A stretch of DNA of 64,000 bases from Escherichia coli (GTDB taxonomy: Bacteria; Pseudomonadota; Gammaproteobacteria; Enterobacterales; Enterobacteriaceae): the NCBI RefSeq assembly GCF_003334305.1, contig NZ_QOWS01000015.1; one strand, 5' to 3'. The first letter of the stretch is position 1. Every line of letters starts with the position of its first letter. Positions 13,807 to 50,468 of this stretch are shown piece by piece. A model generated the notes under the pieces. The model was given only the letters and a program-made list of their open reading frames with translations. It was not told where the DNA came from and ran no database searches. The position numbers were made by a program, and so were the translations under genes.

Positions 13807-13950
13807 GTGAAAAAGTTTCGATGGGTCGTTCTGGTTGTCGTGGTGTTGGCTTGCTTGCTGCTTTGGGCGCAGGTATTCAACATGATGTGCGATCAGGATG
13901 TACAATTTTTCAGCGGAATTTGTGCCATTAACCAGTTTATCCCGTGGTGA
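13807..13950 (+). CDS. mgrB: PhoQ-inhibiting small membrane protein MgrB (47 aa)
   Basis: Read directly from sequence (below ORF-track cutoff): GTG start, translation [47 protein letters not shown]. Confidence 0.85.
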
Positions 13951-14024
13951 TATCATTTTTTCAGCACTAGATTTTCTTCCTCTCCAGCAGTGGTAGAATA
14001 GCGCCTCTACTCAGAGGTGGTGAA

Positions 14025-14312
14025 ATGAACGAAGTTGTAAATTCAGGCGTGATGAACATTGCGTCTTTGGTTGTATCGGTGGTGGTTCTTCTTATCGGGC
14101 TCATCTTGTGGTTTTTTATCAATCGTGCCAGTTCTCGGACTAACGAACAGATTGAACTGCTTGAGGCGTTGCTGGATCAGCAAAAACGTCAAAATGCACT
14201 GTTACGTCGTTTGTGCGAAGCAAACGAACCTGAGAAAGCAGATAAAAAGACCGTTGAGAGTCAAAAATCGGTTGAAGACGAAGATATTATTCGTCTGGTC
14301 GCCGAACGATAA
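14025..14312 (+). CDS. yebO: Small membrane protein YebO (95 aa)
   Basis: 95-aa ORF; N-terminal transmembrane helix; synteny. Confidence 0.85.
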   Translation: MNEVVNSGVMNIASLVVSVVVLLIGLILWFFINRASSRTNEQIELLEALLDQQKRQNALLRRLCEANEPEKADKKTVESQKSVEDEDIIRLVAER

Positions 14313-14327
14313 TCCTTCCTCAATCTT

Positions 14328-14360
14328 GAGTAACCCCGTCGTTGAAGGGTTACTCAATTC
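14328..14360 (+). terminator. Hairpin downstream of yebO (weak terminator)
   Basis: Stem GAGTAACCC/GGGTTACTC directly after the yebO stop; no strong T-run. Confidence 0.4.
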
Positions 14361-14980
14361 ATCCTGATTATACGCACTGCCATGGTGCAACTGCTTCAAA
14401 TTAAAACTCTGGTCTGACTTCAAATAATTATCATATTATTTATTTGCGTAACGGGATATCAGAAAAAGATATTTTCCTCATTAATTTATTAGGATGTTTA
14501 CATCGGATTTGTGATTAAGCGTGGTATTATTTATTAGCGAAACGTTTCTCTCTTGATTTTTTGCTCATTCATCAATTTTTCTTATTTTAAATTTTCAATC
14601 CCTTTGGGGATTGACTTCTCTTTAGGGTAATTGATAGCCGTTAACTGACTGTTTTATGAGAAAAAGTGATATAACTTTTTATTCATTGCATAGCAAAAAA
14701 TGTGATATTGCACGCACTATGTAATAACTTCTCCCACTGGCCTGGAACAACTGAACTTATTGAACTATGTTAGAAACTACGCCAGTTTAAGTATCTGCCT
14801 GAACTGGCAAGGTTAAGCACAATGATATATCGGCGCGTATTCCGTTGCATAAGTGTGCAAAAAAAGTGGAAGACGTATCGAGATTTGTGCGTCTGATCGA
14901 GACATGTTTAAAAATGGCTTGCCATAATTAACGTTGTATGTGATAACAGATTTCGGGTTAAACGAGGTACAGTTCTGTTT

Positions 14981-15124
14981 ATGTGTGGCATTTTCAGTAA
15001 AGAAGTCCTGAGTAAACACGTTGACGTTGAATACCGCTTCTCTGCCGAGCCTTATATTGGTGCCTCATGCAGTAATGTGTCAGTTTTATCTATGTTATGC
15101 CTGCGGGCGAAGAAAACAATCTAA
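14981..15124 (+). CDS. yobF: Small protein YobF (47 aa), co-transcribed with cspC
   Basis: Read directly from sequence: ATG at 14981, translation [47 protein letters not shown]; ends 12 bp before cspC. Confidence 0.8.
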
Positions 15125-15136
15125 GGAATTTTTCAA

Positions 15137-47289: not shown

Positions 47290-47637
47290 TCACAAGCTAC
47301 GTAGCCAGTCGGCCAGCACCAGCGCATGGTTCTGCGTGGTGTTTTTTGCTGCGTAGAGCAGGGTCAGCGGCTGTTTTTTGGCGATGTCCGCCAGCCGCTT
47401 TCCTTCTTGCTCGTGTTGCGCCAGTTCTGCAAGATATTGCTCGCGAAAGGTTGCAAAATCGACGACTTCGCCGTGAAAGGCTTTGCGCAGTTCCGTTGAC
47501 GGCGTGATTTCTTTATCCCACTCATCAAGGGCTAAATCGGTTTTTTTGATACCGCGCGGCCAGAGGCGGTCGACCAGTACGCGATAACCATCGCTCTGTT
47601 CAGCCGGATCATAAACGCGTTTGCACTGAATATTCAT
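47290..47637 (-). CDS. yeaO: DUF488 protein YeaO
   Basis: ORF 47290..47658 trimmed to MNIQCKRVYD start (115 aa). Confidence 0.85.
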   Translation of the reverse strand: MNIQCKRVYDPAEQSDGYRVLVDRLWPRGIKKTDLALDEWDKEITPSTELRKAFHGEVVDFATFREQYLAELAQHEQEGKRLADIAKKQPLTLLYAAKNTTQNHALVLADWLRSL

Positions 47638-47691
47638 CGTGTTTGTTCTCCCTTTCACGCATGATTTGTCACGTCACTATAGCACCGGATA

Positions 47692-48873
47692 TTAGCGAAT
47701 TTCTTTGTCTCTCCCGGCGCAAAGTCCGAAAATCGCCATCAGTAGTGAAAGTATGGCAACACCCATCAGTGGTACGGACCAGTCACCGTTAGCATCGTGT
47801 ATTTTACCCATCAGCGGCGGCCCACAGGCTGCCAGCAAATACCCGACGGATTGTGCCATCCCCGAGAGTGCCGCCGCCTGATGCGCAGAACTTGCCCGAA
47901 GACCAATGAACGTCAACCCCAGTATCATTGTTGCGCCGGAACCAAAACCGAAAAGCAGAGTCCAGGTGATCGCGTGCGCTGGCATAAAGCAGAGCCCAAC
48001 AGCGCCCACTGCGCACATCAAGGCAACGAACGCTGCAATACCACGCTGATCTTTCACATGATGTAAGAAAAGAGGGATCAGCAAACCGGGAGCTGCTGTG
48101 GCTAGTTGCAGCAAACCATGCAGTGAACCCGCCTGTGCTTCGCTATAGCCGCGACTGATGAGGATCGCCGGAAGCCAGCCAATAATCACGTAATAGACCA
48201 GTGAGTTGATCCCAAGAAACAATGTGACCTGCCAGGCAAGCGGCGAACGCCAGATACCCCGAGTATGTAAGGCGCGCGAGGTACTCAAATTTGCATGTTG
48301 TTGGCTTCGCCACTGTGGCAGCCATAAAAAAAGAGCCAGCAGAGGAAAACACATCAGCATGAACAACGCGCCTTGCCAGCCAAAACCGTTCAAAGCCAGC
48401 GGCACGACCATAGCCGATCCCAGTGCCGCTGCAGCTCCCATTGTCAGGGAATATGCGCCGGTAAGTCTGGCGACGGAATGAGGGAAATCGCGTTTAATTA
48501 ATCCTGGCAGTAAGACATTGCCTAATGCAATCCCACCGCCAATGACCGCTGTACCGCCAAATAATAAGTAAGGCGAAGGGAGAGAACGAATTGCGATACC
48601 TGCACAGATCAAAAGTAACGCGGCAAACAGGCTACGTTCCATACCAAAACGTCGCGCCACCGGGGCAGCCAAAGGTGAGATTAGCGCAAAGGCCAATAAT
48701 GGCAGGGTGGTTAATAAGCCGGTTTGCGCTGTCGTCAGCGAGTAAGCGGAACGAATCGTATCCAGTAACGGCGCTGCGCCGGTAAAGGTGACGCGTAATG
48801 TTGTGGCAATCATCAGAATGCCAGCGATAAGGACAATCCTGTTTTTGCCGCTTAATGAAGTTGAACAGGTCAT
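47692..48873 (-). CDS. yeaN: MFS transporter YeaN
   Basis: 393-aa polytopic ORF; divergent from nimR. Confidence 0.85.
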   Translation of the reverse strand: MTCSTSLSGKNRIVLIAGILMIATTLRVTFTGAAPLLDTIRSAYSLTTAQTGLLTTLPLLAFALISPLAAPVARRFGMERSLFAALLLICAGIAIRSLPSPYLLFGGTAVIGGGIALGNVLLPGLIKRDFPHSVARLTGAYSLTMGAAAALGSAMVVPLALNGFGWQGALFMLMCFPLLALFLWLPQWRSQQHANLSTSRALHTRGIWRSPLAWQVTLFLGINSLVYYVIIGWLPAILISRGYSEAQAGSLHGLLQLATAAPGLLIPLFLHHVKDQRGIAAFVALMCAVGAVGLCFMPAHAITWTLLFGFGSGATMILGLTFIGLRASSAHQAAALSGMAQSVGYLLAACGPPLMGKIHDANGDWSVPLMGVAILSLLMAIFGLCAGRDKEIR

Positions 48874-48969
48874 ATGCTTCTCATTGTTACAAACGAGGCT
48901 GTACCTTACCGTTTTTATTGTTATGTTGAATCAAGCTAAAATGACAAATTATCGCTAAATTCGGACAAA

Positions 48970-49791
48970 ATGATGCACAGGTTGAATCTCAATGGCTATG
49001 AACCCGACCGACACCATGAAGCCGCGGTCGCATTTTGTATTCACGCCGGAACGGATGAGTTAACCAGTCCTGTACATCAGCACCGCAAAGGACAGCTGAT
49101 ACTAGCATTACATGGTGCAATTACCTGTACGGTGGAAAATGCTTTGTGGATGGTGCCGCCGCAATATGCGGTTTGGATACCGGGCGGGGTGGAACATAGC
49201 AATCAAGTGACAGCTAACGCTGAACTCTGTTTTCTGTTTATCGAACCCAGCGCAGTGACAATGCCGACAACATGTTGCACATTGAAAATATCGCCCTTAT
49301 GCCGGGAATTGATTTTAACCCTGGCAAACAGGACGACGACTCAGCGTGCTGAGCCGATGACCCGCAGATTAATTCAGGTCCTGTTTGATGAACTCCCTCA
49401 GCAGCCACAACAACAGCTGCACCTGCCCGTTTCTTCTCATCCTAAAATCCGCACGATGGTGGAGATGATGGCGAAAGGGCCCGTCGAGTGGGGGTCATTA
49501 GGGCAATGGGCTGGCTTTTTTGCGATGAGTGAACGCAATCTTGCGCGACTGATAGTAAAAGAGACGGGGTTGAGTTTTCGCCAGTGGCGTCAGCAGTTAC
49601 AGCTGATTATGGCACTTCAGGGATTAGTGAAAGGCGATACTGTACAGAAAGTTGCTCATACGCTGGGGTATGATTCAACAACGGCCTTTATTACTATGTT
49701 TAAGAAAGGCCTGGGGCAAACGCCAGGCCGATATATTGCGGGATTAACTACTGTTTCCCCACAATCAGCGAAACAAGACCCGCGGCAATAA
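48970..49791 (+). CDS. nimR: AraC-family regulator NimR (YeaM)
   Basis: 273-aa ORF with C-terminal AraC HTH region. Confidence 0.85.
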
Positions 49792-50194
49792 GCGGGCCGA
49801 CCGGTACGCCGCGAAACAGCGCCACGCCTAAAACAGTGCCTACCAGCAGCCCGGCGACCAGTTGCGGCTGGCTGCCCATTAAGGTCACGCCGCGCCCACC
49901 CAGCCAGGAGACAATAACGCCTACTGCAATTGCCACCAGCGATTTCCAGTTCAGAAACGAGTGAATCAAGGTTGAGGGCGGTAGCGTCCCGCTGGCGATG
50001 GGGGCCATAACGCCAATCGTCAGAATGATTATCCCGATACTTAGCCCCTGTTTTTCAATCCACGGGAAAAAGGTGCTTAACGGTGTGACGCGGACAATGA
50101 TCAACACCAGAATTGAAACGGCGACAGTGGTGTTATGACTGATAAAGCCCAGCGCAGCTAACCCGAGCAGGATCAGCAAAGTGACATCAAACAT
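49748..50194 (-). CDS. yeaL: UPF0756 membrane protein YeaL
   Basis: 148-aa hydrophobic ORF; 3' end overlaps nimR 3' end by 44 bp. Confidence 0.85.
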
Positions 50195-50363
50195 CGTGGT
50201 TTCCTTGCCAAAAAATAATAAGCCTGCTTACTTTACGCTTGCTGCAGGAAGGAAGTAGAAAATCTTTACGTTTTTTGCATAAAAAATCAGGCGAACTGTC
50301 ATCAAACTGCCATTTGTGCACGCTAACAATAACGTGAAAACAGCTATCTCCCGGGGGCATGCT

Positions 50364-50468
50364 ATGAACGATCAAATGTTCGTCGAGACACTGATTATCA
50401 CGTCATCGTTTTTTGCCATTGCTGTTGTGCTGGTTTTGTCCGTTCTGCTTATTGAACGGACAGGCTAG
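50364..50468 (+). CDS. yoaI: Small membrane protein YoaI (34 aa)
   Basis: Read directly from sequence: [34 protein letters not shown]. Confidence 0.75.

Follow-up and report, generated by a model that had tools for sequence, protein, structure and literature searches.

The window described here is a stretch of 64,000 nucleotides from Escherichia coli (assembly GCF_003334305.1, contig NZ_QOWS01000015.1), and our subject is a set of very short open reading frames (ORFs) between its positions 13807 and 50468. These are very probably seven small ORFs that have already been catalogued, and they fall into two kinds: five genes under selection for their peptides (mgrB, yoaH, yoaJ, yoaK and yoaI), and two translated leader ORFs, yoaL and yobF, which precede yoaE and cspC, respectively. 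An earlier note, made from the sequence alone, had listed six of them (yoaL was missing) as conserved small-protein genes. The six are already annotated and mostly studied, and finding them here is ordinary. What the present analysis adds is the missed yoaL, the separation of the five peptide-selected genes from the two leader ORFs, and the placement of yobF within a nearly invariant cspC leader. The analysis itself established the coordinates, the annotation, the family membership and the substitution patterns, and the protein functions and translation data are taken from the literature.

The window is part of the E. coli chromosome. In a comparison over 47,900 bases it agrees with strain A7 (NZ_CP028767.1) at every position, and a 20-kb piece, identical to strain A7, is matched in all 5426 complete E. 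coli genomes of the collection. Its orientation is opposite to that of K-12 MG1655, where it lies at about 1.86–1.92 Mb. The stretch in question begins at the first base of mgrB and ends at the last base of yoaI. The six genes are readable where the earlier note placed them, as translation of the annotated coordinates gives the named proteins. They are real, named genes, each annotated in RefSeq for both A7 and MG1655; five have NCBIfam equivalogs, and YobF has the Pfam family PF10736. As the note also said, the list of ORFs of at least 60 amino acids (aa) hides all of them (0/6 are in the list). Short ORFs are abundant in the window, with 1391 entries of 12–70 codons when both strands and up to two alternative starts per stop codon are counted, and here a short ORF by itself is no evidence. 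The six stand above chance because of their identity to annotated genes, their family matches and the conservation tests.

Two sets of orthologs were used for these tests. The first consists of 80 Enterobacteriaceae loci around yoaE, obtained in one YoaE scan and extending up to 10 kb to each side; the second, found via relatives of YeaL, consists of 12 loci around yeaL and covers the yoaI-yoaK-yoaJ side. As a coding signature we took the codon-by-codon comparison with orthologs, expressed as the ratio of replacement to silent divergence (pN/pS) and as the entropy at each of the three codon positions (Table 1). The genes mgrB, yoaH, yoaJ, yoaK and yoaI all resemble the control genes yebO and cspC, in that replacement changes are few, silent changes are many, and third positions are the most variable. 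The pattern of the controls is not shown by yobF and yoaL. The label “conserved” is thus well founded for the five genes (pN/pS 0.11–0.40, values that are rough for yoaJ, yoaK and yoaI because the samples are small, with 6, 4 and 3 distinct sequences), but not for yobF, where conservation is at the nucleotide level and the frame is lost past codon 14 in several genera. A tblastn comparison, which the note had proposed as a check, found matches to YoaJ, YoaK and YoaI in other Enterobacteriaceae loci.

Table 1. Small ORFs of the window, the cspC leader and two control genes, with their coding signatures (entropy is given for codon positions 1/2/3).
Feature	Position	Strand	Description	Distinct orthologs	pN/pS	Entropy
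mgrB	13807-13950	+	47 aa, GTG start; annotated in A7 and MG1655	61	0.20	0.59/0.23/1.07
yobF-cspC leader block	14957-15136	+	highly conserved, contains the yobF ORF			
yobF	14981-15124	+	47 codons, ATG, 12 bases upstream of cspC; annotated in A7 and MG1655	47	0.52	0.21/0.19/0.19
cspC	15137-15346	+	control	61	0.01	0.03/0.02/0.41
yebO			control	63	0.25	0.66/0.35/1.37
yoaL	20841-20999	+	52-codon leader ORF of yoaE; annotated in A7 and MG1655	48	0.76	0.82/0.75/0.82
yoaH	27841-28020	+	59 aa, soluble acidic, UPF0181; annotated in A7 and MG1655	73	0.11	0.25/0.14/1.08
yoaJ	45598-45672	-	24-aa single-helix membrane peptide; annotated in A7 and MG1655	6	0.28	0.51/0.26/1.02
yoaK	45675-45773	-	32-aa single-helix membrane peptide; annotated in A7 and MG1655	4	0.17	0.35/0.17/0.82
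yoaI	50364-50468	+	34-aa membrane peptide; annotated in A7 and MG1655	3	0.40	0.61/0.29/0.89

With so many short frames in the window, one might suppose that some of the six are chance ORFs without a product, carried along by name in annotation, and a passage of PMC11429745 does cite earlier tagging work in which YoaI was undetected in rich medium. We regard this as extremely improbable, and it is largely refuted already, since all six have family models and translation or selection evidence of one sort or another. The antisense ORFs in the list of at least 60 aa provide a useful contrast. These run over mgrB (13768–13956 (−), 62 aa) and yoaH (27825–28025 (−), 66 aa) and are intact in 7/57 and 0/73 cases, respectively, whereas the annotated frames are intact in 56/61 and 68/73. 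The antisense frame over yoaH mimics the coding signature (pN/pS 0.19), because its third positions are shared with yoaH.

Of the five peptide-selected genes, mgrB keeps its GTG start and a length of 47–48 codons in all 63 loci that reach it, and the C-terminal block of the protein is close to invariant across these loci. MgrB aligns with the NCBIfam equivalog NF007635 over residues 1–47 on model positions 1–47 (89.9 bits, cutoff 40). It has one membrane helix (best 17-residue hydropathy window 2.95, from residue 7), and the region after the helix is conserved, contains two cysteines and is predicted to be periplasmic, in agreement with membership in the family. A PhoP-box-like direct repeat, TAGTTAGGCGCTGTTTA, lies upstream of the gene at 13740–13756 (+) and appears to fit the published regulation, in which MgrB is a PhoP-activated small protein that inhibits the sensor kinase PhoQ (PMC11429745). 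The gene of the window would accordingly encode a membrane peptide that is under PhoP control and feeds back to inhibit the PhoQ kinase.

The strongest purifying selection is seen for yoaH (pN/pS 0.11, 73 orthologs), which is intact in 74/74 loci with lengths of 59–88 aa. YoaH matches NCBIfam NF003476 over its full length (114.2 bits, cutoff 72) as well as Pfam PF03701 (UPF0181; E = 3e-29), and it would be a soluble, acidic protein of this family. A structure search gave no solved relative.

The genes yoaK and yoaJ are adjacent, with yoaK downstream of dgcP and yoaJ starting 2 bases downstream of yoaK, and they would supply two single-helix membrane peptides, made from the terminal part of the dgcP transcription unit. 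YoaK matches NCBIfam NF033821 over its full length (69.1 bits, cutoff 32), and Pfam PF28021 is recorded for its orthologs; YoaJ matches NCBIfam NF011343 over residues 1–24 of 24 (60.4 bits, cutoff 54). Full-length tblastn matches of 24 aa to YoaJ, ending in GWW, occur at the Salmonella, Klebsiella, Kluyvera, Kosakonia and Pseudescherichia loci and at loci L086–L089 of the set of 12. YoaK is found in a subset of the loci that have YoaJ; by tblastn of the 12 loci it is absent from those of Kosakonia, Pseudescherichia, Buttiauxella and Cedecea, so that Kosakonia and Pseudescherichia have YoaJ without YoaK.

The last of the five, yoaI, is nested in a 50-aa ORF with a GTG start (50316–50468). YoaI matches the whole of the NCBIfam model NF041475 (79.8 bits, cutoff 45). 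Its distribution among the 12 loci compared is patchy, with orthologs only in Salmonella, Pseudescherichia and Kosakonia, and none at the Klebsiella, Kluyvera, Buttiauxella and Cedecea loci or at L086–L089. The window has Glu31 (LIERTG), which has been called essential for YoaI (PMC11429745), and so do the three orthologs. A Pho box, CTGTCATCAAACTGCCAT, with 2 mismatches to the consensus, is located at 50296–50313 (+), 51–68 bases upstream of the yoaI start. Judged by its sequence and position, it seems to fit the published description of YoaI as a PhoB-regulated small membrane protein that is reported to activate EnvZ (PMC11429745). The yoaI product of the window would then be a PhoB-induced membrane peptide of the kind reported to bind and activate EnvZ.

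The earlier note had asked for evidence of translation, and the literature supplies it for five of the six proteins. MgrB, YobF and YoaI have been studied by Ribo-RET, tagged westerns, and deletion with complementation (PMC11429745). YoaK is translated, as seen with a chromosomal tag (10.1101/511675), and tagged constructs of both YoaJ and YoaK have been tried as RseP substrates (PMC10470546). The exception is YoaH, for which our literature search found no experimental paper.

The first of the two leader ORFs, yoaL, was absent from the earlier list, and the ORF track hides it inside an 84-aa ORF with a TTG start. It ends within yoaE, overlapping the yoaE start by 13 bases. YoaL matches Pfam PF22867 over residues 1–52 (E = 5.5e-38). 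In a check that is independent of any protein search, the frame is open from MD(R/P)HRR to a stop that follows the yoaE ATG by 10 bases in 77/78 distinct sequences, and over the variable core frame 0 is open in 53/53 sequences, as compared to 22/53 and 9/53 for the other two frames. The peptide itself is conserved only at its ends (MD(R/P)HRR first and SRSLSWNS last), and the middle varies freely, with a pN/pS of 0.76 and no codon periodicity. The conserved C-terminus coincides with the Shine-Dalgarno sequence, the start codon and the first codons of yoaE. What is kept would thus be the frame, its six opening codons and the region in which the yoaE ribosome-binding site is embedded, with the remainder of the peptide being free. 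The open frame agrees with the published finding that yoaE-lacZ drops strongly when yoaL contains a stop codon (10.1101/511675). We infer that yoaL acts by coupling its translation to that of yoaE; translation of yoaL up to and across the yoaE start would promote yoaE expression.

The second leader ORF, yobF, is quite different at the DNA level. Per-site identity in the block that contains it is about 0.84–1.00 (59 distinct Enterobacteriaceae sequences), and conservation over the entire 11–32.5 kb region peaks in 90 bases of this block (14960–15049), with a mean identity of 97.1% over 64 loci, compared to 95% for the cspC coding sequence. Silent-site divergence (pS) is only 0.098 in yobF, against 0.27 in cspC and 0.59–0.75 in the other genes compared except yoaL. 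There is no codon periodicity, as the entropy is essentially flat (0.21/0.19/0.19). In comparisons of E. coli with Serratia, Rouxiella and Brenneria, the differences at codon positions 1/2/3 of yobF number 6/4/6, 7/4/5 and 7/7/5, respectively, while those of cspC number 1/0/22, 1/0/22 and 2/0/27. The ATG is invariant in the 59 distinct sequences, as are the first 12–14 codons, and beyond these the frame is loosely held. The ORF that begins at the ATG ranges from 15 to 56 codons across loci, and its stop varies in position between 106 bases upstream of the cspC start and a point 14 bases inside cspC. In 9/64 loci, one-base indels or a stop interrupt the frame after codon 14–24. At one locus, L049, a frameshift after codon 14 is corrected again ahead of the stop. 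Some of the frameshifts are common to related species (two Kosakonia together with Enterobacter sp. Bisph1, and two Trabulsiella), which argues against sequencing error. Hence yobF does not evolve in the manner of a protein gene, with its frame kept and an excess of silent changes. The even codon positions, the low pS and the broken frames together indicate that DNA or RNA is kept here, and not a peptide. Judged by its substitution patterns, yobF resembles a translated piece of a strongly conserved cspC leader, some 180 bases long and constrained at the level of single bases, rather than a conserved protein; yobF is translated in E. coli and Salmonella, but most of its conservation would reflect the leader RNA or DNA, and the constraint would be regulatory.

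Several observations weigh against the division into five peptides and two leader ORFs, or at least against the place given to yobF in it, in addition to the small samples for yoaJ, yoaK and yoaI already mentioned. Deletion of yobF lowers the growth yield in low Mg2+, and rescue from a plasmid needs an intact start codon (PMC11429745), so the E. coli YobF peptide itself may act, which is compatible with constraint at the nucleotide level. The first 38 residues of YobF are similar, and recognisable, from Escherichia to Serratia, Rouxiella and Brenneria. Finally, for the yobF-cspC leader no stable or covarying RNA structure emerged.

The first two of these points belong to a reading in which YobF is a conserved, functional small protein, and in which the extra synonymous conservation comes only from signals laid over its gene, namely an OxyS pairing site, an internal cspC promoter and the cspC ribosome-binding site. 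Consistent with this, the ATG is invariant, a Pfam model of 38 positions exists (PF10736, DUF2627; E = 2e-30, residues 1–38 on model positions 1–38, although an NCBIfam search gave no match), and YobF is reported to associate with the membrane, with complementation that depends on the start codon (PMC11429745). The named promoters, yobFp1 and yobFp2 as well as an intragenic one, cspCp8 (PMC13162491), likewise supply candidates for overlaid signals. We nevertheless consider this reading rather unlikely. The frame is lost after codon 14–24 in the 9/64 loci just described, which represent at least five named genera, while the DNA is still about 95% identical; replacement and silent changes are about equal in the distant comparisons (pN/pS about 0.66–0.75); and the overlaid signals known at yobF are short, whereas the constrained length is about 180 bases.

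Returning to the leader, three more specific explanations of its conservation were tried and rejected or found to be unsupported. Rfam RF01766, the cspA 5' untranslated region (UTR) thermoregulator, matches 14961–15421 at 135.7 bits, spanning both yobF and cspC. This match is due to the cspC coding part: the leader alone (14900–15136) gives no match at E up to 10, and, set against shuffled controls, it has no likeness to the sequences upstream of cspA or cspE, so that yobF does not lie in a cspA-type 5' UTR and its leader is not a member of that family. Indeed, no Rfam family matched the leader alone. Stable RNA structure is not supported either, as the folding energy is no better than that of shuffles (z = +1.04), and in the consensus fold almost no pairs are variable, the variation being too low for covariation. 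One predicted pairing, between the Shine-Dalgarno region of yobF (14964–14970) and 15060–15066, is invariant and is neither supported nor refuted by the comparison; as model output only, the predicted opening of this Shine-Dalgarno region rises from 0.28 at 25 °C to 0.67 at 48 °C. A second overlapping frame, such as an N-terminally extended CspC, can be dismissed: upstream of cspC its frame stays open for just 4 codons in 55/59 sequences, and no frame or strand of the yobF region is periodic.

What we tentatively propose, as a possibility that falls somewhat short of probable, is that an undescribed cis-regulatory element of cspC, with yobF as its translated frame, occupies the segment of about 180 bases between the region where yobF-cspC transcription starts and the cspC start codon. 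This element would be conserved across Enterobacterales, is not in Rfam, and would owe its constraint to something other than a peptide or a stable fold. One possible source of the constraint is single-strand binding by Csp proteins or by another factor, and it is possible that translation of yobF and binding to the leader together set the output of CspC.

The published record on this operon is varied. In E. coli YobF is translated, and low Mg2+ induces it (PMC11429745); earlier work cited there describes its post-transcriptional induction by heat. In Salmonella, OxyS represses a yobF::sfgfp fusion (PMC10965054), and the phenotype of a yobF deletion was traced to polarity on cspC (PMC8599858). 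The yobF-cspC operon has been presented as an extreme case in which genes of a single operon differ in their footprint-to-mRNA ratio (10.1101/109264), and it is a hotspot of adaptive mutations (PMC13162491). Our literature search found no paper that reports nucleotide-level constraint on yobF, which is not proof that none exists.

Two further observations concern the same region. A small GC hairpin at 15099–15108 (+), about 30 bases upstream of cspC, was compared in E. coli, Serratia, Rouxiella and Brenneria; its stem is kept and its loop differs, and it lies inside yobF in E. coli and past the yobF stop in the other three (loci L097–L099). In addition, the gene that we call cspC, after MG1655, is named cspE in the RefSeq annotation of A7.

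The earlier note had also suggested that other short ORFs in the long leaders of the window could be real. This holds for yoaL, which was already known, and the conservation screen brought out no others. The screen covered 193 entries of 12–70 codons with at least 60% of their length outside larger annotated genes, and these were scored for ortholog number, intactness, pN/pS and entropy. It applies to ORFs of at least 12 codons and, on the 40–60 kb side, to 12 comparison loci. Only mgrB, yoaH, yoaK and yoaJ combine low pN/pS, high pS, an excess of third-position changes and intactness, and among intergenic ORFs of at least 12 codons in the window no further candidate emerged beyond the known genes. 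One remaining entry is a 14-codon ORF at 32772–32816 (+), which stops 10 bases short of the fadD start. The frame is intact in 11/15 orthologs with a pN/pS of 0.31, and the third-position excess is absent, making it a weak candidate only. For the mntP leader, a single review that was consulted makes no mention of an upstream ORF, and the ORFs in this leader show only the level of conservation that goes with the riboswitch.

That the intergenic regions and leaders of the window conceal more small proteins of comparable quality, as yet unannotated, is improbable, with just four of 193 entries standing out and with no third-position excess in the ORF upstream of fadD. The 11/15 intact copies and low pN/pS of that same ORF speak for such proteins to some extent. 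So does yoaL, which is real without having a conserved peptide, and which illustrates how a screen on pN/pS can miss such cases, given that an ORF of the yoaL type, with a free peptide, is detectable in the screen only through intactness.

Nor is the density of small proteins in the window notable, although the earlier note had drawn attention to it. E. coli has at least 150 proteins no longer than 50 aa (PMC11429745), which gives about 2.1 expected per 64 kb versus 5 seen in this size range. As yoaK and yoaJ are adjacent, these represent 4 independent loci, and the Poisson tail comes to about 0.06 if five are counted and to about 0.16 if four are.

Some other features of the window may be recorded here. 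The Mn2+ riboswitch (yybP-ykoY) of the mntP leader, at 17015–17111 (−), scores 41.6 bits versus an Rfam gathering score of 45 and is missed at default settings. The small RNA sroD (Rfam RF00370, 114.6 bits) is found at 34471–34556 (+), at the 3' end of fadD and upstream of rnd. An element of the IS200/IS605 family of insertion sequences occupies about 43351–45110, with tnpA at 43417–43848 (−) and tnpB, a TnpB/InsQ gene, at 43856–45064 (+). It is not in MG1655 and is present at other sites in other E. coli genomes. With its insertion, the last 11 residues of YoaG are replaced by 13 unrelated ones.

For practical purposes, known small genes go missing from an ORF track with a 60-aa cutoff, which in their stead lists antisense ORFs over mgrB and yoaH. 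Short ORFs are best compared with curated small-protein families before they are flagged, and peptide-selected small proteins should be kept apart from translated leader ORFs. The one point of some research value is yobF. Because CspC is a global RNA chaperone and adaptive mutations recur in its operon (PMC13162491), the constraint on the yobF leader merits a direct test.

When the small ORFs are set beside the known systems to which they belong, most show no difference at all. The window's MgrB resembles the family of NF007635 over its full length, in its N-terminal helix, in its conserved periplasmic tail and in its position between yobH and yebO, as in K-12; there is no difference to report, since the ORF is mgrB itself. 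The same applies to YoaI (NF041475; PMC11429745), where the 34-aa match, the Pho box and Glu31 are all present. YoaK and YoaJ (NF033821 and NF011343), small membrane proteins known from comparative genomics, are represented by a pair of full-length equivalog matches that otherwise do not differ from the published ones, and their tandem arrangement downstream of dgcP is also kept in Salmonella, Klebsiella and Kluyvera. Among the leader ORFs yoaL, pssL, baxL and argL (10.1101/511675), yoaL is a tested member. The yobF ORF is like this set in its upstream position, its variable peptide tail and its variable stop. It differs from yoaL in that the DNA of yobF is almost invariant, whereas the middle of yoaL is free to change.

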